IMG/VR virus record: IMGVR_UViG_2684623050_000001
Span: 1 to 64,000 of that record
Strand: one strand, 5' to 3'
Origin: a virus
Lineage: Duplodnaviria; Caudoviricetes
DNA length: 64,000 nt
Positions 41,191 through 57,666 of this stretch are shown one piece after another. A program made the position numbers and the translations under genes. The notes under the pieces are model-generated. The model did not search any database, was not told the origin of the DNA, and saw only the letters and a program-made list of their open reading frames with translations. Numbering within the stretch: the first letter of the stretch is position 1; each line of letters begins with the position of its first letter.

Positions 41191-42789
41191 TTACGCCGCG
41201 GTCTTCTTCTGGTCCTTGTCCGTCACCTGACCCTGCTGGTTGGCCTTCCCAGCGTTCTTGGGCGGTGACTTCGAGGAGCCGGAAGCGTTGGACCCGCCTG
41301 GGGCGGGGAAACCGGTCGGAGGCGAGGTCGCCTCGAACATCTGCTTGGCGCGCTCGACGGGATCGACCGGCCAGGACTTCAGCTCGGCGAGCATCTTGGC
41401 CTTGATCTCCTCGGCGACGCCGGGGAACAGCTTGTCCACGATCTGCTTCATCTGCTCGGAGCGGATGGTCTTGGGCGCCTCGATCAGGCCGAGGTTCTGC
41501 GCGACCGTGAATTCATCGAACAGCGAGCGAACATCGAAGGTCTCGGGATACTTGACCACGCGCTCCTTGAGCGGCGTAGCCTTGTGCCAGAGCAGCACGA
41601 GTTCGTTCAGCTGGTGCTCGACCTGCTCCAGGCTCTGGGCCTTGGTCGTCAGGAGCGAGTTCAGCTTGTCGAAGTCGTAGGCCTTGGCGACGCCCGAGGA
41701 GTTGTCGATGCCGACGGCGTTGTCCTGCTTGGTCCGCTCGCCCGAGGCGCCGGCCGTGTTGTAGATCTCGGCGACGATCTTGTTGATCGCCGTGATGATG
41801 AGCTGGGCCTGGCGCGGGTCCGGGGACAGGTATTCGGGCGCGGCGCCGCCCTCCCCGTCGTAGAGGAAGATGCGCTTCGTCCCCATGTCCACGAGGGCGT
41901 TGTGGGCCTCGGTGCCGGGCAGGACGTTCTGGGCCGGCATGGCGAGCTGCGAGAACGCCTGATCCTGGATGATGGCATCCAGGTTCGACAGGTAGTTCGC
42001 GCTCGCCCGGTCCAGGTAGGCGATGTCGTCGATGAGGCCGGACGCCGAGTAGAGGTTCTCGCCGAGGATGTGGTCGGCGAAGAAGCACGGGACCCGGCCG
42101 ATCGCGACGGGGCCCTGGTCGAGCAGGTCGACGCGCTGGGAGCCGCGCACGTCCTTGATCTCGAACAGCATCCACTCGTTGCGCGTCCAGAGCCGGTAGC
42201 GCACCTTGACCTTACCCGAGGCGTAGATCGGGTCCTTGTCGTCCCGGTAGGTCTCCTGCACGAAGACCCACAGCAGCTCGCCATCGTCGTCATGGAAGCC
42301 CATGTCGAGGATGTTCTGGGGACGGACGAAGTAGGTGTAGACGCGCGCGCCCTGCTCCTTCTCGTCGGCCTGACTCACCGCGTCGTCGGTCTTGGTGGAA
42401 TCGACGAACACCAGCACGCGGCCGAGGATCGAGGTCGCGGTCGAGATGATGCGGATATACTGGTCGATCGTCAGCCCGGAGCGGGTGCAGTTCGCCCAGA
42501 AGTCCTTGAGCTCCTTCGGCGCGTCGTCCTTGCGGATGATGCTGCCCTTGAAGAGATACTTCTGGACGAGCTCCACGATCTCGCGCGTGTGGTTGAACCG
42601 ATACGCGCGTTCGAGGCGATCCTTGTATTCCTTGTCGCCTTCCTTGATGTAGCGGAACACGTTGTCCTTGAACCACTCGCGGCCACCCTCGTAGGTGGCC
42701 TGGAGGAAGTTCCAGTGCGGCAGCTTGCCCTCATAGTCAGGGTGACGCCGCTTGAGCATCTCCTGAAGGACCTTCTGGGCAATCGCCAC
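41191..42789 (-). CDS. Portal protein
   Basis: HPDY..W, Y..RL.RA...N, SGVAKAYDF, 532 aa downstream of the terminase. Confidence 0.85.
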   Translation of the reverse strand: MAIAQKVLQEMLKRRHPDYEGKLPHWNFLQATYEGGREWFKDNVFRYIKEGDKEYKDRLERAYRFNHTREIVELVQKYLFKGSIIRKDDAPKELKDFWANCTRSGLTIDQYIRIISTATSILGRVLVFVDSTKTDDAVSQADEKEQGARVYTYFVRPQNILDMGFHDDDGELLWVFVQETYRDDKDPIYASGKVKVRYRLWTRNEWMLFEIKDVRGSQRVDLLDQGPVAIGRVPCFFADHILGENLYSASGLIDDIAYLDRASANYLSNLDAIIQDQAFSQLAMPAQNVLPGTEAHNALVDMGTKRIFLYDGEGGAAPEYLSPDPRQAQLIITAINKIVAEIYNTAGASGERTKQDNAVGIDNSSGVAKAYDFDKLNSLLTTKAQSLEQVEHQLNELVLLWHKATPLKERVVKYPETFDVRSLFDEFTVAQNLGLIEAPKTIRSEQMKQIVDKLFPGVAEEIKAKMLAELKSWPVDPVERAKQMFEATSPPTGFPAPGGSNASGSSKSPPKNAGKANQQGQVTDKDQKKTAA

Positions 42790-42801
42790 GACGCCGGCTC
42801 C

Positions 42802-43071
42802 TTACGCCAGGGCCGTGAAGGCGACGCGCGCGCCGGCCTTGTTCGGGGCACGCACGAACAGGGTCAGGCTCGGGTAGTTCAGCGGCAGCGGGCCGGACGC
42901 GCCGCGCAGCTGGTGCGCGGGCGCATCGAGCCCGGGCTCGGCGTCGGAGAGGACGAACAGCACATCGGCCGCGACCGGCAGCGCAGGCGAGGGAATGGTC
43001 TGCAGGAGACCCTGCGCCGGCCCGAGATCGAGCCAGTTCTCCTCGGTGATGTCGGTCTGGGTCGTTGCCAT
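42802..43071 (-). CDS. Hypothetical protein
   Basis: Between terminase and portal. GAAGGA RBS. Confidence 0.6.
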   Translation of the reverse strand: MATTQTDITEENWLDLGPAQGLLQTIPSPALPVAADVLFVLSDAEPGLDAPAHQLRGASGPLPLNYPSLTLFVRAPNKAGARVAFTALA

Positions 43072-43130
43072 GGGTCTGTTCGTCCTTCGGAAGAGCTAGA
43101 TGATAAGTCAGTGCTGACTGATCCACAAGA

Positions 43131-44396
43131 TCACAGCGAAACGCCGAGGATCTTGATCTGACGCACCGGGAATTCGAGATCGAGGCAGTAGCCCAGCGCG
43201 TCGGCCGGGTGCTCGACGCCCGCGCTCTTGTCCACGTCGCGCGAGCCCGGCTTGTAGATCGTCTGCTCGAAGGCGTTGATGACGTGCTTGCAGTTCCGGT
43301 CCACCTTGAGCCGGATCGTGCCGTCGGCCGCCTTGAGCATCCGATTGACCGAGTTCACGCGGTCGGCCACCTTCGGGTGCTTCTTGCGATACTTGAGATT
43401 CTTGAACTCGGCGTCGCGCAGGATGTCGAGGTCGCTCTCGCCGCGGCCGTGGCCGCGCTGGGCGCCGGCCGGGTCCGGGTAGAGAATGATCCGCTTCTTG
43501 TGCTTGAAGAACTTGCGGTCGAGCTCCTGCGCGACCTCTTCGGTCGAGGAACCGGGCAGGATGATCTCGCCCACGATCCAGACCTCGCCGTTGTCCTGCA
43601 GCTGCATGATGACCGACGACATCGGGTCGATGTTGAAGTCCTGCCCGATCCAGATCGGCAGCTGCGGGTTGAAGGCGTAGTCGCCGACGTGGATGTTGCG
43701 GTCGAACGCATGGTAGACGCGGCCGCTCATCGTCTCGAAGCTCGCCTCGAACTCCTGACGGAACGACTTGTCGTCCATGTTCTGGCGCGCGTTCTCGATC
43801 TCCTCCAGCGGGATGAACGGCGACGTGATGGTCGGGAACTGCCAGGACTTGTGCGTGTTGCGGCGCAGCTTGCCCTTCGCGTCGCGATACGTGTCGCCGC
43901 GCTGGCCCTTCATGTAGACGTCGTAGAGCCAGTTGTAGGCCTTGGGCGTCCCGATGATGATGGCGCTGCCGCGGGTCGAGGCGAGCGTCGGCATCAGGAC
44001 CTTGAACCAGGTGTCCGGCTCGATGTCCTGGGCCTCGTCGACCACGACCAGGTGCAGCGCGACGCCGCGCAGGCTGTCCGGCTTGTCCGCGCCCTTGCAC
44101 TCGATCAGCGAGCCGTTGCGCAGCCGGATCGCCATCCGGGTCTCGTTGATCCGCTTGACCCACTTGGCCGGGATCGAATCCTTTAGCTCGTCCCACAGGA
44201 TCGAGCGCGCCATCCCGTAGGTGGGCGCGACATACCAGACCTTCTGCTTGGACTTGGCCGCGGCAGCGGTGACGATCGAGATCCGCGCGAACTGGGTCTT
44301 GCCCCAGCGCCGGCCGGCAACGACCACCTTGACCCGGCGCGGATCGTTGAAGACCGTCGCCTGGCCGTGGTGGAGCTTATACTCAAGCGTCGCCAT
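43131..44396 (-). CDS. terL: Terminase large subunit
   Basis: AGRRWGKT, YVAPT, VVVDEA, GTP, FRQEFEASF, GQDFN, HPADALGY. Confidence 0.93.
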   Translation of the reverse strand: MATLEYKLHHGQATVFNDPRRVKVVVAGRRWGKTQFARISIVTAAAAKSKQKVWYVAPTYGMARSILWDELKDSIPAKWVKRINETRMAIRLRNGSLIECKGADKPDSLRGVALHLVVVDEAQDIEPDTWFKVLMPTLASTRGSAIIIGTPKAYNWLYDVYMKGQRGDTYRDAKGKLRRNTHKSWQFPTITSPFIPLEEIENARQNMDDKSFRQEFEASFETMSGRVYHAFDRNIHVGDYAFNPQLPIWIGQDFNIDPMSSVIMQLQDNGEVWIVGEIILPGSSTEEVAQELDRKFFKHKKRIILYPDPAGAQRGHGRGESDLDILRDAEFKNLKYRKKHPKVADRVNSVNRMLKAADGTIRLKVDRNCKHVINAFEQTIYKPGSRDVDKSAGVEHPADALGYCLDLEFPVRQIKILGVSL

Positions 44397-45195: not shown

Positions 45196-45470
45196 TCTTC
45201 CAAGACAGGCTCTCCGGCTGTGGGCCGGATCAGCTGATAAGCCAGAAGCGTCGGAGCGAGAGATAGCCTGCGTCCGGCTCCATACTTCCGGACGAGGAGC
45301 CCGTGCTGCTCCAGATACCGGATGGAATACTGGAGCGCCTGCGGGGTCGCCTCGTAGGAGAGATCGGCGTGCAGATCGACGAAGCTGAGGTCCCGGCCCG
45401 CATCTGCGGAGCCGAGCACCAGATCCATGATCTCACGCTGCTTTGCTGTGGCTGCGAAGCGCTTGCTCAT
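45177..45470 (-). CDS. Winged-helix DNA-binding protein
   Basis: TAKQREIM..L, LQYSIRYLEQHGLLVRK, wing ..LAPT. Confidence 0.65.
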   Translation of the reverse strand: MSKRFAATAKQREIMDLVLGSADAGRDLSFVDLHADLSYEATPQALQYSIRYLEQHGLLVRKYGAGRRLSLAPTLLAYQLIRPTAGEPVLEDPSPRS

Positions 45471-46396
45471 GTCAGCACCAGGGGTTCGGTCGGCTTCTGC
45501 CGGTCGAATGCGGACAGAGGAAGGCTCTCGGGCAGGACCCGACCCTTGTCCGGGTTCTTCCAGACGCCATACATCGGCGAGGCCAACGTGATCTGTTGCA
45601 GGCTCCGGATCACGCGCCGCGCGTCCATCTCGTCGACCCGGCCCTGGCCCTTGTCGCGGTTGTTGCCGGTCTTCTCCAGCGCCGAGTGCCGGTAGTAGAA
45701 GTCGCGGGCGGCCTGGACGAGCTTCTCCTGCTCGGCCGGCGACTTGCCCGCGATCTCAGCCAGGATGGCCTCGTAGTCGGCCGGGTTCGCCTCGAAATGG
45801 CTGCGGAAGAACTTGAGCCCGGCCTCGAACTTGTTGGCGTTCATCGGCTTGACGAACTTGAACCCGGCCTTCTGCCCGAACAGGTTGAACTTCGACATGG
45901 ACGACTGGATCTCCATGAAGGTGTTCCCCTCCATGCGCGAGACCAGGTTCATCATCCGGTAGCCGCAGCCGATCCCGCGATACATCGTGTCCACGACGAA
46001 GCGCGCGATCACCCGGAAGTTGGCGTTCAGGTAGACGTAGCGGTTGGTGTTGGTGAGCTTGGTCTCGTCTCCACCCGGCTTGAGGCGCGGGAAGGCGACG
46101 TGGCGCTCCTTGAGCAGCCCCTTGGGGTTCGAGGTCACGAGGACGCCGATCGTCTCGCCGTGGAGCGCCAGCTTCCAGAACCGGGGCCCGATCGGCAGGC
46201 TCTCGGCCTTGTAGTGCAGGTCGTGCAGCAGCTCCCAGTCGTCCTTGGTGCCCCGCTCGACGACCATCTCGTCGATCAGCGAAAATCGCGCAGGGGCGCT
46301 TTCACGCGCGATCAGCGTGTCGGGGCCGTCAAACACGACGGTCGCGCTGTGCGACGAACCTCGCGCAACGCTGGGGCATCCAATTTCGAGCGACAT
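45467..46396 (-). CDS. GNAT-fold acetyltransferase, possibly DNA-modifying
   Basis: LHYK, IARFVVDTMYRGIGCG (acetyl-CoA motif A), N.F.QKAGF. Confidence 0.75.
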   Translation of the reverse strand: MSLEIGCPSVARGSSHSATVVFDGPDTLIARESAPARFSLIDEMVVERGTKDDWELLHDLHYKAESLPIGPRFWKLALHGETIGVLVTSNPKGLLKERHVAFPRLKPGGDETKLTNTNRYVYLNANFRVIARFVVDTMYRGIGCGYRMMNLVSRMEGNTFMEIQSSMSKFNLFGQKAGFKFVKPMNANKFEAGLKFFRSHFEANPADYEAILAEIAGKSPAEQEKLVQAARDFYYRHSALEKTGNNRDKGQGRVDEMDARRVIRSLQQITLASPMYGVWKNPDKGRVLPESLPLSAFDRQKPTEPLVLT

Positions 46397-46575
46397 CTCA
46401 GATCGGGGCGTAGAAGAAAGCTCGAACGAGCAGGGCGGCCCCGCCCAGGCATCCAACGATGCGGGCGAGGTCAATGAAGGTGTCGAGGCTCACGGCTGCG
46501 GGCCGAGCGCGACGAGCACGACGAGGGAGAAAGCTCCGGCGAGGAGCACGCCCCAGAAGGCTTCCCGGATCGTCC

Positions 46576-46914: not shown

Positions 46915-47324
46915 GGCACCCGGTTCTTACAGGCCGTGAACATGAACACGTAGGGAAGGCTCATCTTCGAGTGAGCGTCCGGCACCTGAAGCTCCAGATA
47001 CATACCCTTGCCGTTCCAGCCGGCGCGGGCCACGCGCTTGCCGGCCTGCATCGCCTCGACGACCTCGCCGATCCGCAGACCCGTGGTCCGGGGCGCCTCG
47101 GCAGCCGGCGTGGTCAGGATCTTGGCCGCGGTGATGTTGAGGCGATCGGGCGCGCCGCCGAAGGTGATGTTGCCGATCACCAGATCGCCGTTCGTCTTGG
47201 CCTGGATGTCGACCTGCGAGCGCGGCTGTGAGGTCACGACGAGGCCCTCGGGCTCCCGGCTCGTGATGGTCACATCGTGATCGCCGATGACGATCTTGGT
47301 GTGAATGTCGGATTCGGTGCTCAT
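46860..47324 (-). CDS. DUF2829 / Tad2-like anti-defence protein with N-terminal extension
   Basis: GEVVEAMQAGKRVARAGWNGKGMYL...PY...VPWLCSQSDLLAQDW. Confidence 0.8.
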   Translation of the reverse strand: MSTESDIHTKIVIGDHDVTITSREPEGLVVTSQPRSQVDIQAKTNGDLVIGNITFGGAPDRLNITAAKILTTPAAEAPRTTGLRIGEVVEAMQAGKRVARAGWNGKGMYLELQVPDAHSKMSLPYVFMFTACKNRVPWLCSQSDLLAQDWEIVS

Positions 47325-47962
47325 ACTGCTGCCTTCTCGACTTCCACCTTCTCGCGGAAGCGCTTGGTGATGGTGAGGGAGGGACCGAGCTCGTCCTTGA
47401 GGTCGGTGTGGGTGGTCGCGACCATCAGCGTCCGGCCGGCAGCGCGGGCCGCCTTCTGGACGTTGAAGGCGATGACCTTCGCGGTGACGCGATCGAGGAC
47501 GGCGCCGAACTCGTCGGCGACCCACACATCGGCGTTCGAGCCGATGATCTTGGCGAGCTTCACCCGGTAGCGCTGACCGTCGGAGAGCTCGAACGGGCGC
47601 CGGATGAAGATCCAGGCGTCCGAAATGCCGGCCAGACCCAGCAGCCGCAGCCCCTCGGTCATGGAGCCACCCACCTGCTCGATGACGGGCTCGTCCGTGA
47701 GCTCGACCTCGTTGAGATCGGCCACGACCTTGCCGTCGGCGCGCAGCTTGCCCGTCAGGTCGCGCAGGAGCAGCGACTTGCCGGACCCGGACTGGCCGGT
47801 GATGTAGACGACATCGCCCTGGTTCAGCTCGACCAGCAGGTCGTCGTAGACGACGAAGCGCTTGTCGGAGAGGCCCAGACCGAAGGCCTCGGCGACTTCG
47901 AGCACGCGCGGCGTGCGCTCGACCGACGACGAGAAGGCGCGCGAGATCCGGTAGGTGCTCAT
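47321..47962 (-). CDS. Soluble ABC-family ATPase
   Basis: Walker A GQSGSGKS, signature LSDGQ, Walker B WVADEF..LD, H-loop ATTH. No permease partner. Confidence 0.85.
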   Translation of the reverse strand: MSTYRISRAFSSSVERTPRVLEVAEAFGLGLSDKRFVVYDDLLVELNQGDVVYITGQSGSGKSLLLRDLTGKLRADGKVVADLNEVELTDEPVIEQVGGSMTEGLRLLGLAGISDAWIFIRRPFELSDGQRYRVKLAKIIGSNADVWVADEFGAVLDRVTAKVIAFNVQKAARAAGRTLMVATTHTDLKDELGPSLTITKRFREKVEVEKAAV

Positions 47963-55371: not shown

Positions 55372-55580
55372 GCGCCGGCCCCGAGGAGATCGACCTGCTG
55401 GAGCTGGCCCGCGAGCTCATGCGGCAGTTCACGCCCGAGGAGAGAACCGAAGTGGTCCGCGAAGCGGACCGTCTCGGGATCTCCGAGGAATACGTCGTCC
55501 TCGAAGCCATCCTGCAGCTCGATCTGTCCGAGTTCGCGCACGGGGAATTGGGGAGTGGGGAGCCTGGGACCCAAGGATGA
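55368..55580 (+). CDS. Hypothetical protein
   Basis: ATGA overlap with the parG-like gene. Confidence 0.5.
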   Translation: MSAGPEEIDLLELARELMRQFTPEERTEVVREADRLGISEEYVVLEAILQLDLSEFAHGELGSGEPGTQG

Positions 55581-55714
55581 TCGCCGGGGATCTGGTGCCT
55601 CTCCCAAGGACCGGCCGGAGATGCTGGTGGACACCCGAGGCATAGCCCAGAGCGCGTGAGTGTGGCTCTAGGACATCACTGTGTCTCAAAAACTACAGTG
55701 ACAAACGTGCAACG

Positions 55715-55751
55715 TGATGCGCGCGTGCATCAGTGTGTCACGCGCGCATCA
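55715..55751 (-). terminator. Hairpin built without GG/CC
   Basis: 13-bp stem tgatgcgcgcgtg/cacgcgcgcatca just past the 55757 stop. Confidence 0.6.
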
Positions 55752-55756
55752 GTGTG

Positions 55757-56137
55757 TCATGCTTGCTCGTCAAGCACTAATTCGACGCAATGCATAAGAA
55801 AACGCTTGAAGTCTGCGAAGTTGTCGAAGCGAAAACATTGCTTCTGCAATGTAATGTTTTCGTCAAAGTTAAGATCAGAGCATGCATAATGCGCATCGTT
55901 AAGCGTGCGCACAACGACGTGATGAAAGCTGTCGTGCTTGCGTTCGATGCGCACAGCGTCGATGTAGTGAAACTGCATCACAAGCATTTCAACGCGCTCG
56001 CTGTAAGCGTCAAAATCGTCGCGCGCGCTCATGTCAGTGCGATAGTCTGCGAAGCTGTCGAACGCGCTCATCAGCGCTTGCTCTTGCGCGAGCTTGCGTG
56101 TCTCAGCGTTCATCTCAGCGATATCTTGAAGCGTCAT
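55757..56137 (-). CDS. Hypothetical protein lacking Gly/Pro/Trp
   Basis: 126 aa from MTLQDIAE. Purine-rich AGAGAG upstream. Confidence 0.7.
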   Translation of the reverse strand: MTLQDIAEMNAETRKLAQEQALMSAFDSFADYRTDMSARDDFDAYSERVEMLVMQFHYIDAVRIERKHDSFHHVVVRTLNDAHYACSDLNFDENITLQKQCFRFDNFADFKRFLMHCVELVLDEQA

Positions 56138-56197
56138 GACGAAAACTCTCTGTGTTGCTGACAAATGCTTGTCGCATGCGTTCGCATTGCAAGTCAA

Positions 56198-56389
56198 TCA
56201 CTGCTGACTGACTTTTTCGAGCTTTTTGCGCGCGCGATGCTTCGCGACACGCAAGCGCGCATCTTCGTCTCTGTGCGACGCGACAAGCGCTAGATAAGCT
56301 TCGCGTGCGCGTTGCTTCTCTGTGCGAAGCTCGCTCAGACGCGCTTCGATTGACGCGATTTCAGCGCGCAGAGCGTCAGACTTGCACAT
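56198..56389 (-). CDS. Small coiled-coil protein lacking Gly/Pro/Trp
   Basis: 63 aa, heptad pattern, GAGAAG upstream. Confidence 0.5.
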   Translation of the reverse strand: MCKSDALRAEIASIEARLSELRTEKQRAREAYLALVASHRDEDARLRVAKHRARKKLEKVSQQ

Positions 56390-56449
56390 AGCGTTTGCTT
56401 CTCATGAGAGCGTCGCACAGCGCGTTCGCGCGCTCTGAGCTAGTGAGAG

Positions 56450-56478
56450 CGCTAGAGACGCGCGAAGCGTCTCTAGCG
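56450..56478 (-). terminator. Hairpin built without GG/CC
   Basis: Stem cgctagagacgc/gcgtctctagcg just past the 56492 stop. Confidence 0.65.
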
Positions 56479-56491
56479 TGCGTCTGAGCGC

Positions 56492-57106
56492 TTAGAGCGC
56501 GACGTTCAGCGCTTTCGCGAGACGCTTCGTCGTCGTCGCGCTCAGATTGAGCTTGTAAGCGACTTTGTTCATGTCGTCGCGCGTCTCTGTCAGCACGTCG
56601 AACATTTGCAGCGCATTGATGCTAGAGCTTGACTGAGTGTCAGCAGTGCTTGCAGCGATGCTGCGAGCGTAGCGCGAAATCAGTTGCTCTTTCGTCGCGT
56701 CGCACTTGAGCGCGTCGCACAGCGACGCTTGAGCGTCAGCGTGCGTCATGCTCTTGTCAGCTTTCGTCAGATTGAGAGCAGTCAAGAAAACGTGCTTGCT
56801 GTAGACGTTCAGCGCTTCAGCTTTGACAGCAGCGCGCGCGACGTTGAACACTTTCTCAGCGCTGTAGACGTTGAAACGCTTGTTGCGACGCTCTTGACGA
56901 TTGATGAAGTCAGCAGCGACGTTCGCAGTGTGCATGACTTCGCAAACGACGTCTGACGCGAAGTCAGCGCGAAGCGACTTGAACGTCTTGAAAATGTTTT
57001 CGTTAGCGTTGTTCTCGCGCTCATAAGCTTCGCGAGCGTCGAAAGCAGAAGTGAGAGCGAGCTTGTAAGCAGTGACAGCTTCGTTCTTCGCGACGTTGTT
57101 GCTCAT
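56492..57106 (-). CDS. Hypothetical protein lacking Gly/Pro/Trp; paralog of 58363-59271
   Basis: 204 aa from MSNNVAK. Shares F.NR.....R.NVY...KV and AST..TQ.SS...AL with the 58363 protein. Confidence 0.82.
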   Translation of the reverse strand: MSNNVAKNEAVTAYKLALTSAFDAREAYERENNANENIFKTFKSLRADFASDVVCEVMHTANVAADFINRQERRNKRFNVYSAEKVFNVARAAVKAEALNVYSKHVFLTALNLTKADKSMTHADAQASLCDALKCDATKEQLISRYARSIAASTADTQSSSSINALQMFDVLTETRDDMNKVAYKLNLSATTTKRLAKALNVAL

Positions 57107-57143
57107 GTCTGTGTCTCTCTGTGTTTGTGTGCTGACAAGAGAC

Positions 57144-57171
57144 AATTTAGTCAGTTCGCATTGAGAGTCAA
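57144..57171 (-). promoter_or_regulatory. Sigma70-like promoter of the island gene
   Basis: TTGACT-16 bp-TAAATT, with a degenerate palindrome immediately upstream of and overlapping -35. Confidence 0.55.
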
Positions 57172-57666
57172 TCAGCACTGAGTGACTTTTTGCAGAAAAT
57201 AGGAATTTTCTTCTGAGACGCATTCTTGCTCTTGACAGTAGCAAGCGAGCAACACGAGCGTGTGCGCAATCTACATGCGCACAATTCAATGATGCACGAT
57301 GTATTGCGCACGATTTAAGAGCGCTTGATCGAGTGATGCGCGAGCGATCGAGCCCGCGCCGCGCCATGGGTCTCTACCGAAGCCCGCCCCAAGCCGTTCC
57401 TAATTTCCGGAACCGGATGGGTCAACGGCGTCCGCCCATGGCAGCCCGATCCCTCCCATGGCACTCCATGGGGCACCAATGCGAAAATATCGTCTCAGGA
57501 GGCCCGTGGAAGCCCGCGGCAGGCTCCGGAGCTGTCCACGGTGCTCCGGACCCTCCCATGGGGCTCCTGCGCGCCCCTGTGCGATCCCATGGGCTGATCG
57601 AGCGCAACGATATGGGGCGCCCCTCGCGAGACGCCCCTCTGTGTGTCGCGCGTGCTGCGCTACCCC

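Follow-up and report, generated by a model that had tools for sequence, protein, structure and literature searches.

What could remove a two-base step altogether from one small part of a viral genome? The element studied here is a 117-kb phage-plasmid in which one small regulator operon is written without any GG or CC step. All positions refer to the window, meaning the whole stretch of DNA that was analysed (64,000 nucleotides). Word positions and gap counts place the GG/CC-free island at 55673..57352. Both CC and GG are absent from 55673-57201; a GG at 55671-55672 lies before the island, and beyond the clean stretch come a GG at 57202-57203, the single one within 55673-57352, and then a CC at 57353. 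These positions agree exactly with those given in the earlier note on this DNA. The CC/GG gap at the island is 1531 bp long and the runner-up separate gap in the window is 80 bp. On the same replicon the longest other gap is 91 bp, setting aside an adjoining one of 151 bp; the values for two small contigs are 90 and 44 bp, and the maximum for the rest of the assembly (4 contigs and 5,599,206 bases in all) is 115 bp, on the chromosome. At the replicon frequency of 0.165 per base the island should hold 253 CC and GG words, and its base composition alone predicts 215, in line with the couple of hundred that had been estimated. The boundaries of the island are sharp and its GC content is below that of the flanks. 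Contigs from two DNA runs, possibly of the source sample (X1 and X2), match the island in separate pieces, five for X1 and four for X2, each with 0-1 differences. This cover consists of short contigs only, so that uncovered stretches carry no meaning, and as far as could be tested the contigs disfavour an assembly artefact.

Because the operon contains no GG or CC, its proteins are free of glycine, proline and tryptophan. Three genes, all on the minus strand, were found to encode such proteins, as had been claimed: p204 (204 amino acids; 56492..57106), the conserved core gene; p63 (63 amino acids; 56198..56389), a small basic helical protein with a pI of 10.1; and p126 (126 amino acids; 55757..56137), an acidic protein of pI 4.8 without a family. 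None of the three contains a single glycine, proline or tryptophan. Avoidance of the word extends, as proposed, across codon junctions and into non-coding DNA. Codon junctions of the three genes hold no CC or GG, compared with a mean of 41.4 (standard deviation 4.0; minimum 28) in 2000 synonymous-codon shuffles, and the four non-coding parts of the island hold one, compared with about 65 expected. Since the junctions and the non-coding parts are purged too, the avoidance acts on nucleic acid, and a constraint on nucleic acid rather than on the proteins is supported. Analysis of nine pooled islands (7.8 kb) revealed CC/GG as the only strongly avoided word among di-, tri- and tetranucleotides. 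CG and GC are enriched 1.7-1.8 fold in the same islands, and the palindromes GCGC, CGCG and TGCGCA are plentiful. Neither general avoidance of palindromes nor a simple drift towards AT fits this pattern.

The signals around the genes follow the same rule. Purine-rich leaders of the AGAGAGA type stand ahead of the ATGs and hairpin stems avoid the word by alternating bases, both as described in the earlier note. Two stable hairpins downstream of p126 (55673..55760, minus strand; -38.6 kcal/mol, z -3.5), with stems free of GG and CC, mark the 3' edge of the island, and a perfect 11-bp hairpin occupies the p204-p63 spacer (56448..56478, minus strand). A scan of 55400-57500 called one promoter-like site only, a predicted sigma-70-type promoter of p204 (57144..57171, minus strand) consisting of TTGACT, 16 nt and TAAATT. 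A second promoter-like stretch ahead of p126 (56160..56197, minus strand), with TTGACT at 56197-56192, was read by eye and is uncalled by the scan; a shared leader motif comes after it. Operator-like repeats containing TGCGCA, read from the sequence, lie upstream of the p204 promoter at 57255..57325, within the purged zone. A non-coding block dense in CCATGG/CCRYGG, the first of several, begins at the island end (57353..57610). Outside the purged zone, the same leader motif is found at a normally coded gene for a 126-aa protein with weak HTH-type matches (57667..58047, minus strand) and at the gene for p302 (58363..59271, minus strand), which is paralogous to p204 (27% identity, E 5e-13) but normally coded, with 22 glycine, proline and tryptophan residues. 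An inverted repeat is present in the window at 59522-59601, and no similar one was found in the related phages B1VFA or RHph_X66.

Searches with p204, p63 and p126 gave no family in Pfam, PHROGs or NCBIfam, and nothing in the island exceeded the Rfam threshold. Neither blastn with the island nor tblastn with p204 found a match in the phage collection, and a DNA search of plasmids with the island returned the M. oryzae plasmid as the only match. A replicon-specific ORF of 293 amino acids had no match in the Atlas look-up or in a sequence search of the PDB. Homologues of p126 were confined to near relatives (the search returned its own cluster), and its single-sequence model was poor (pLDDT 48.4). 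p63 is missing in a close relative (X3 contig).

p204 is a basic protein (pI 9.1) whose N-terminal domain is helical and whose C-terminal part (residues ~91-203) is a winged helix-turn-helix. Its AF2 model is confident and mostly helical (pLDDT 92.8), with a three-helix bundle and a beta wing, and VIA-align gave Z scores of 8.3-7.0 over residues 91-203 with many winged helix-turn-helix regulators. Assignment to a winged helix of MarR-like topology is at fold level only: Foldseek with the model gave no match below E 0.001, the best Pfam result in a comparison with MarR, IclR and other named HTH families was HTH_IclR (E 0.15; 12.3 bits against a cut-off of 22), and the Atlas look-up placed p204 in unnamed clusters only. 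A total of 17 columns are invariant across 40 sequences of the p204 family, whose reading frames are intact, and p204 and p302 have a conserved Ser-rich recognition helix in common. The model indicates that p204 is a winged-helix DNA-binding protein, and p204 is a paralogue of its normally coded neighbour p302. Long, normally coded paralogues contain on average 8.1% glycine, proline and tryptophan.

The earlier note had proposed beforehand to look among relatives for CC/GG-free coding retained despite divergence. The outcome was positive: a clean stretch of at least 400 bp around the p204 homologue was found in 19 of 24 distinct related records. DNA identity between orthologues is only 49-75%, conserved residues are differently coded in 32-58% of cases, and five of the six constrained orthologues in the codon comparison contain no CC or GG. 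The purge is total in lineages down to 49-55% DNA identity. It has therefore been upheld independently in the separate lineages. Among 43 close homologues of p204, 25 have no glycine, proline or tryptophan and all have six or fewer; among 150 representatives of distant homologues, 39 have none. Comparison of the mostly G/P/W-free close homologues with the 8.1% of the paralogues shows that the purge is costly to the proteins. Of 16 islands for which the gene call was usable, 13 have a purged zone beginning 40-129 nt before the ATG, at the promoter; in L012 and L013 a GG is still present between the -35 and -10 boxes. Accessory genes vary between close relatives.

The rule is conserved and has also been lost repeatedly. 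Relatives with normal CC/GG content, named in the earlier note as the case that would count against it, do occur in the M. oryzae-type clade, but in a quick tree this clade is clearly nested and derived, so that it represents a derived loss and leaves the finding intact. Other G/P/W-rich lineages are scattered inside the clade, and the tree gives at least four lineages that became relaxed independently. Two relaxed genes (L001 and L009), from nested lineages, have 117 and 108 CC+GG per kb, a normal composition that the gene acquired quickly once the constraint was gone. The trait follows one phage lineage over several host genera, and constrained and relaxed elements coexist in one host genus. 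Overall, the pattern among the homologues shows that the purge is inherited and under selection. SSU5, which has the same terminase type, showed no strict island in its 50-100 kb portion (longest CC/GG gap 154 bp), and its syntenic 217-aa protein contains 10 glycines. The relatives include the plaque-forming phages RHEph10, RHph_X66 and B1VFA, and the B1VFA island occupies 42408-43259 of its record. B1VFA has fixed ends and a direct terminal repeat of 3,605 bp (PMC12509600), which means that a defined first-entering end exists in this phage group; the "terminal repeats" of three IMG/VR contigs are assembly overlaps of 123-127 bp, not genuine ends.

An operon written without GG and CC implies something that reads this word and that the operon must escape. 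The data establish the purge, the level of nucleic acid at which it acts, its conservation and repeated loss, and the p204 fold; what we infer is this agent: its existence, its action on DNA, its source and its timing. Leaks of the word on the sense strand show a CC:GG ratio of 22:9, compared with 100:35 in neutral sequence (p 0.73), or 21:3 when RHEph10 is removed (p 0.10). A strand-dependent reading was rejected on the former comparison; both strands are purged alike, which fits a reader of double-stranded DNA. The island would be a self-contained regulator operon, with its own sigma-70-type promoter or promoters, p204, variable small accessory proteins and hairpin ends, from which purifying selection on DNA would clear GG and CC from about the promoter through the terminal hairpins. 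An agent reading the GG/CC step on DNA would cut, nick, mark or mask DNA bearing it, and the operon would be the one template still readable by the host RNA polymerase in that phase of phage-plasmid life. That the operon is kept clear of a DNA-acting GG/CC reader, as the sole readable template, is the explanation that we consider best, at somewhat below an even chance. The trait stays in one phage lineage over several host genera and is unseen elsewhere in the host genome, and the agent is thus slightly likelier to be tied to the phage's own cycle than to host defence; it would be a phage-encoded or virion-delivered nuclease, nickase or DNA-coating or marking factor. On the other side, a DNA-binding regulator is all that the islands protect in common, and how such a protein could by itself save a genome under attack is hard to see.

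A search for the reader was carried out among known enzymes and among genes that accompany the trait. No N6/N4 methylase, C5 methylase or TGT (PF01555, PF00145, PF01702) was found on the replicon or on any of four other constrained phage records; matches to the three families in G000 are on the chromosome only. A methyltransferase gene is also reported absent from the relative pLM21S1, in the accessible part of its description (PMC5537653). No acetyltransferase (GNAT) domain was present among the proteins scanned. BLAST comparison revealed only rIIA and a 116-aa ORF as genes occurring in both constrained C2 and RHEph10 yet missing from the relaxed M. oryzae plasmid. rIIA was rejected as a candidate since it is absent from a constrained record (G416), and an ABC ATPase (47321-47962) was dropped as its homologue is also found in the relaxed plasmid. 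tRNA-Trp(CCA) adjoins the island in RHph_X66 and B1VFA; the replicon has tRNAs for Met and Ile only, and RHEph10 for Cys only. A tRNA-level cause was rejected because it cannot account for the purged codon junctions. A study of nick motifs (PMC11780129) was set aside as a lead, its accessible portion dealing with unrelated phages. No description of the phenomenon was found in the published literature, supplementary files left aside.

Among the alternatives, the one closest to the preferred explanation is that the operon evades a host defence recognising GG/CC on DNA that enters the cell; the two overlap and differ only in the source of the reader. The operon would then be an immediate-early anti-defence or regulatory unit, and the reader a CRISPR PAM (CC for type I-F, NGG for Cas9), a restriction enzyme or nickase that cuts frequently, or a toxin that modifies bases. 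In its architecture the operon resembles anti-defence operons: its promoter is strong, its HTH-type regulator is conserved, and its small genes, acidic or basic, are variable and differ between close relatives. The M. oryzae plasmid, the only fully sequenced relaxed relative, has acquired a DUF5131+TcmP pair along with two genes resembling SAM methyltransferases, and DUF5131 is absent from all nine constrained records searched, a correlation that rests on one relaxed genome. CRISPR-PAM evasion, one of the defences suggested in the earlier note, is weakened, as neither Csy3 (type I-F) nor Cas9 above cut-off was found in any of 121 host-genus genomes. The occurrence of the trait along one phage lineage in several host genera, with both states in one genus, also argues against a host reader, and the remainder of the phage genome, rich in GG and CC, would still be hit. 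We consider this source of the constraint, whichever of these readers is meant, unlikely.

Still less probable is a constraint at the RNA level, in which the mRNAs of the operon would have to survive, or be translated, under a GG/CC-specific endoribonuclease or RNA-modifying toxin. The purged zone does correspond to the transcription unit, starting only within the promoter spacer in L012 and L013, and GG-free purine runs replace GGAGG in the leaders. A contig of 2250 nt from an RNA library spans just the island of a relative, a weak hint given that DNA is possible in such libraries. However, a single-word RNA reader would not purge CC and GG equally on the sense strand, as the leak ratios indicate, and the purge in the window also takes in 150 nt on the upstream side of the called promoter.

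A third explanation places the cause in the regulators themselves: p204 and p302 would bind CC..GG-type sites, such as the CCATGG/CCRYGG arrays, and the operon would be kept proof against autoregulation. Dense arrays begin 1 bp past the island and recur ahead of neighbouring genes, the M. oryzae plasmid and RHEph10 carry arrays at the corresponding position, and the Ser-rich recognition helix is common to p204 and p302. A 6-bp site can, however, be avoided without removing every CC and GG, isolated ones included, and the arrays remain in the relaxed M. oryzae plasmid though its gene has normal CC/GG. We regard avoidance of own binding sites as highly improbable. A mutational relic, for example of CC-directed cytosine deamination in a highly transcribed or single-stranded region, is more improbable again. 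Many differences from the relaxed homologue are G-to-A changes within GG, and the lowered GC content of the island agrees with such a process; the proteins are nevertheless well conserved with intact frames (the 17 invariant columns), the most enriched words, CG and GC, are not products of deamination, and the purge is sharply bounded and total even at 49-55% DNA identity. An all-helical fold needing no glycine, proline or tryptophan, which the confident, mostly helical model of p204 might suggest, has almost no probability, since the purged junctions and non-coding DNA contradict it, the missing NCC/NGG codons are left unexplained and paralogues of the same fold carry about 8% of these residues.

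Comparison with known systems revealed partial likenesses to the preferred explanation, an operon kept clear of a DNA-acting reader. The first-step-transfer (pre-early) DNA of T5 is a small promoter-bearing block free of target sites that are common elsewhere in the genome. The phage-plasmid similarly resembles T5 and BF23 (for BF23, the accessible text of PMC10644984) as a large siphovirus of 110-120 kb with a small promoter-bearing block lacking otherwise common target sites: the island has none of the 215-253 CC/GG expected, which the remaining genome carries, and among relatives of the phage-plasmid the ends are fixed and carry direct terminal repeats (B1VFA, PMC12509600). It differs in the length of its banned word, a 2-bp step, in a total purge at the price of three amino acids, and in that the island holds no A1-, A2- or dmp-like genes, its three proteins matching nothing in Pfam, PHROGs or NCBIfam. 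RHEph10 has an annotated deoxyribonucleotidase about 30 kb from its island. Avoidance of restriction sites or PAMs in phages and in the leading regions of plasmids is described, in the parts of the two papers that are accessible, as a statistical depletion of 4-8 bp words (PMC12455610, PMC13478746); on that evidence the likeness is selective depletion of a short word in the DNA whose function is needed first. The island instead lacks a dinucleotide over 0.5-1.5 kb, GCGC, CGCG and TGCGCA are plentiful without general depletion of short palindromes, and no matching system was found in the hosts among those searched (Csy3, Cas9).

Nt.CviPII/M.CviPII of chloroviruses is a CC-reading pair of nickase and methylase with a word of 2-3 bp, used against host DNA, and it is thus a virus-borne DNA enzyme reading a short CC-containing word. 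Chloroviruses are, however, viruses of eukaryotic algae, no homologue or methylase was recognised on the phage-plasmid, and we know of no purged 'safe' operon in chloroviruses. Resistance of ACA-less mRNAs to MazF is similar in that a gene stays expressible by lacking the word that a nuclease cuts; the MazF case concerns RNA and one strand, whereas the island is purged equally on both. The acr-aca operons are like the island in having a strong promoter, an HTH-type regulator that is conserved and small genes that vary. The island proteins matched no family in Pfam, PHROGs or NCBIfam, and to our knowledge word avoidance does not occur in acr-aca operons. Modification of phage DNA with deazaguanine at a GA motif is a dinucleotide-specific mark, according to the accessible part of its report (PMC11780129), and on this account phage DNA marks can have dinucleotide specificity. 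The motif is a different one, and no TGT/DpdA was found on the replicon or in four relatives.

Motif avoidance follows a general logic that is already known; what is new is its scale here, the shortness of the word and the price paid by the proteins. We know of no bacterial or phage system that explains a total local purge of one dinucleotide step, here so strong that proteins which are conserved and folded do without three amino acids, evidently over long evolutionary time. Whatever the mechanism, these phages provide dozens of natural proteins made of 17 amino acids, including a confident winged-helix fold, beside normally coded paralogues, and the lineages that lost the rule constitute a ready-made comparative test. 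If a GG/CC reader exists, it would represent a new class of DNA-directed activity of near-minimal specificity, possibly a useful enzyme, and would reveal a new principle by which phages control genes or take over hosts. We put forward tentatively, as a possibility with the balance of probability against it, that this lineage uses a novel two-base DNA activity at GG/CC (phage-encoded or virion-carried, and serving to nick or cut DNA, to mark its bases or to coat it) together with a 'safe-harbour' regulator operon written in a 17-amino-acid alphabet, which would be the only template readable while the activity is on. If true, bacterial viruses would possess a DNA-reading system of a new kind, and the lineage would amount to a long-running natural experiment in reduced genetic and protein alphabets.

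A CC/GG-free stretch had been reported from the sequence alone in an earlier note, and our counts agreed: between the GG at 55671-55672 and the GG at 57202-57203 neither CC nor GG occurs, and both are again missing from there up to 57353. This leaves a clean gap of 1531 bp; the next separate gap counted over the window is 80 bp. The window represents positions 1062-65061 of the phage-plasmid replicon (117,697 bp, 65% G+C) of a four-contig assembly, and the longest CC/GG gap in the remaining 5.48 Mb of this assembly is 115 bp. A total of 253 CC and GG are expected in 1531 bp from the replicon frequency and 215 from the island's own base composition. Five and four separate pieces of the island were recovered in short contigs of two DNA sequencing runs, with 0-1 differences per piece; as these runs may be the source sample itself, they exclude a consensus error rather than give independent support.

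The island encodes three minus-strand ORFs, p204 (56492-57106, pI 9.1), p63 (56198-56389, pI 10.1) and p126 (55757-56137, pI 4.8), and glycine, proline and tryptophan were found to be absent from each, as claimed. The only promoter called by a scan of 55400-57500 is a sigma-70-like TTGACT-16-TAAATT on the minus strand ahead of p204 (57171-57144); a second TTGACT, read by eye in the sequence and not called by the scan, lies ahead of p126. The GG-free ribosome-binding regions and alternating-base hairpins described earlier were also recognized, the leaders being AGAGAGA-type purine runs and the hairpins, located 3' of p204 and of p126, being stable with stems lacking GG and CC.

The claim that the constraint acts on nucleic acid and not on protein held at both codon junctions and non-coding parts. 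No CC or GG was observed at the codon junctions of the three genes, against a mean of 41.4 and a minimum of 28 in 2000 synonymous-codon shuffles within these genes, which preserve a codon usage itself already without CC and GG inside codons. The same proteins recoded with the codon usage of the neighbours carried about 141 CC and GG (minimum 115, 1000 recodings), and the four non-coding parts of the island contain one where about 65 are expected. A 7.8-kb pool of nine islands contains no CC (558 expected) and no GG (451 expected), zeros that follow by construction from picking the stretches as gaps; CG and GC are enriched 1.7-1.8 fold, and no word besides CC and GG is strongly avoided in this pool. 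Strand-dependent avoidance was not supported, the sense-strand leaks being 22 CC to 9 GG against a neutral 100 to 35 (p 0.73).

Analysis of the boundaries, with RHEph10 (gene called on the wrong strand) and one further locus (no upstream distance) set aside, covered 16 islands whose gene call was usable. The nearest upstream CC or GG falls at the promoter, 40-129 nt from the ATG, in 13 of them and 272-451 nt from it in the other three. In two loci (L012 and L013) GG persists between the -35 and -10 boxes. Downstream, CC or GG follows within 37-384 nt, except in the three-gene island of the window (820 nt from the p204 stop). From these distances, what is constrained is the transcription unit together with its promoter.

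A search of 5.8 billion proteins gave 43 p204 homologues, down to 42% identity, 25 of which lack glycine, proline and tryptophan; all 43 contain six or fewer. An exhaustive search of 1.84 billion representatives gave 252 matches at E up to 0.001. Among the best 150 of these, 39 are without any of the three residues and all 39 fall within the 83 proteins of 260 aa or less, while none of the 67 longer proteins, which resemble the nearby p302, is free of them (on average they make up 8.1% of these longer proteins). DNA was readable for 24 distinct records, duplicate entries and near-identical contigs having been merged when their contig names or island patterns agreed, not by base-by-base comparison. 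A clean stretch of at least 400 bp accompanies the p204 homologue in 19 of the 24 (the longest being 1373, 1294, 1102, 979 and 951 bp), so that CC/GG-free coding, which the earlier note had proposed to look for in divergent relatives, is indeed kept; two records are leaky and three normal. The 19 include the plaque-forming Rhizobium phages RHEph10, RHph_X66 and B1VFA, with one gene per island. Orthologues share 49-75% DNA identity and differ in codon at 32-58% of conserved residues; each lineage has therefore maintained the purge independently.

A quick maximum-likelihood tree was built from 99 rows. The short proteins, 85 rows, group in a single clade (support 100), with 52 free of the three residues, 21 having 1-4 and 12 having five or more. 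Well-supported branches force at least four changes of the 'five or more' label over the whole tree, a figure to which the split from the long paralogues may contribute; on these sequences several independent losses of the purge are likely, with no firm count. Also with support 100, the M. oryzae-type clade is nested, next to Methylobacterium-type sequences free of the three residues. In this clade the gene carries 117 CC and GG per kb, the protein has regained just two glycines and one proline, and the downstream island genes are decayed. Within the short-protein clade the free state is therefore ancestral and relaxation derived, which disposes of relatives with normal CC/GG content as a refuting case. 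The p204 gene occurs in only two of 146 host-genus species genomes: this assembly and a genome in which the match lies at the coordinates of the M. oryzae plasmid.

At positions 99105-99785 of the RHEph10 record (L035 49105-49785), the island gene is a minus-strand 189-aa ORF that overlaps the plus-strand gp097, whose annotation is probably on the wrong strand; the ORF has an AGAGAGA-type leader and a p204-family-like N-terminus, and gave no significant match to the p204 profile. GG/CC-poor segments were also seen in G108, which belongs to another genus of the family: two of them (L003 1625-2131 and L004 1082-1802), about 2.5 kb apart on one contig, match different parts of p204, one with an in-frame TGA, and may be a split or decaying copy. 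Two Rhizobium phages, RHph_X66 and B1VFA, carry tRNA-Met and tRNA-Trp(CCA) 1-1.5 kb from the island (L047 8717-8965; L048 11605-11845), joined in B1VFA by tRNA-Asn; this replicon instead has tRNA-Met and tRNA-Ile (1529-1685). A 2250-nt contig from an environmental RNA library (run X4) spans only the island region of a relative with 72% identity, ending 36 nt past one island edge and 162 nt past the promoter region; it might reflect high expression or, alternatively, DNA in the RNA library.

Upstream of the island lie normally coded genes for a 126-aa protein with weak HTH-type matches (57667-58047) and for p302 (302 aa, 58363-59271), a p204 paralogue (27% identity over 159 residues, E 5e-13), both preceded by the leader motif of the island genes; ParA and a ribbon-helix-helix protein lie on the other side. 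CCATGG/CCRYGG-dense blocks begin at the island edge and recur ahead of these two genes. Four such non-coding blocks lie in 57353-60545, many of their sites spaced by one helical turn. A GTTCC-N8-GGAAC-like motif is close to each block (e.g. 57395-57417, 58266-58290 and 59664-59686), and RHEph10 (L035 48720-48790) and the M. oryzae plasmid (L001 6870-7120) show the same arrangement; the local wHTH/HTH proteins probably bind these arrays. At 59522-59601 an inverted repeat of 30 nt (90% complementary) encloses a 20-nt AT-rich core, with CCATGG sites flanking it; this candidate for an origin or processing site had no counterpart in B1VFA or RHph_X66. Between ParB-like genes and the terminase lie an ABC-type ATPase (47321-47962) and a 335-aa protein without family (45467-46474); their RHEph10 counterparts are annotated 'ABC transporter', and the relaxed M. 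oryzae plasmid has homologues of both.

No sequence family matched p204. Its AlphaFold model (40-sequence alignment; pLDDT 92.8, pTM 0.89) predicts a winged helix-turn-helix at residues 91-203, structurally similar to MarR/ArsR/Fur-type regulators and linker-histone globular domains (Z 8.3-7.0); Foldseek with the model returned nothing below E 0.001. A nearly invariant Ser-rich helix (T154, Q158, S160-S162, A165, L166) occupies the expected recognition-helix position, and p302 has a similar one; thus p204 is most likely a DNA-binding regulator sharing targets with p302. Accessory genes vary: p63 is absent in one close relative, 827 different letters stand mid-island in another, and elsewhere the islands have unrelated ORFs of 55-85 aa.

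As a check on CRISPR PAMs, 121 host-genus genomes were searched: none gave Csy3, which marks type I-F, and none gave Cas9 over the cut-off, with weak HNH-only matches in 40. N6/N4 methylase, C5 methylase and TGT matches were only chromosomal in this assembly and absent from four other constrained phage records. Both RHEph10 and the relaxed M. oryzae plasmid show synteny with the replicon; comparison of 143 called ORFs revealed only rIIA and a 116-aa ORF as common to RHEph10 and missing from the relaxed plasmid. rIIA occurs in seven of eight further searchable constrained records and was not found in G416. Outside the window, replicon positions 82921-86818 hold the rIIA-like gene, with a GHKL ATPase domain, and a 507-aa ORF at the rIIB position. 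Besides a HEPN/Toprim gene and two generic SAM methyltransferase-like genes, the relaxed plasmid has gained a pair seen only there (L020 7593-10309), in which a DUF5131 (Gp37/Gp68) gene is partnered by TcmP carrying a GMT-like wHTH domain. DUF5131 was found in none of nine constrained records searched; its presence with relaxation, seen in one relaxed genome, is a lead and not a finding. The terminase is of SSU5 type, and the longest CC/GG gap in the 50-100 kb half of SSU5 is 154 bp.

The phenomenon is not mentioned in the main texts of the full-text literature searched, including the B1VFA paper (PMC12509600), nor in the passages covered of the pLM21S1 paper (PMC5537653). Overall, one transcription unit of a phage-plasmid lineage is held GG/CC-free by selection on nucleic acid, both strands alike, at clear protein cost; at least one nested clade, and probably several others, lost the rule. 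The simplest cause would be an agent that reads the GG/CC step on double-stranded DNA and inactivates the template. Its source is slightly more likely the phage than the host, because the trait goes with the phage lineage in hosts of Methylobacterium, Rhizobium and Faunimonas type, the same host genus holds both constrained and relaxed elements, and nothing comparable occurs elsewhere in this host genome; a host factor is nearly as likely because no enzyme was found. An RNA-level, self-binding, mutational or protein-level cause is a weaker explanation. B1VFA has fixed ends and a 3.6-kb terminal repeat (PMC12509600), from which a T5-like entry scenario would be physically possible. If an agent does inactivate GG/CC-bearing template, the island operon would be the one unit that has to remain readable.
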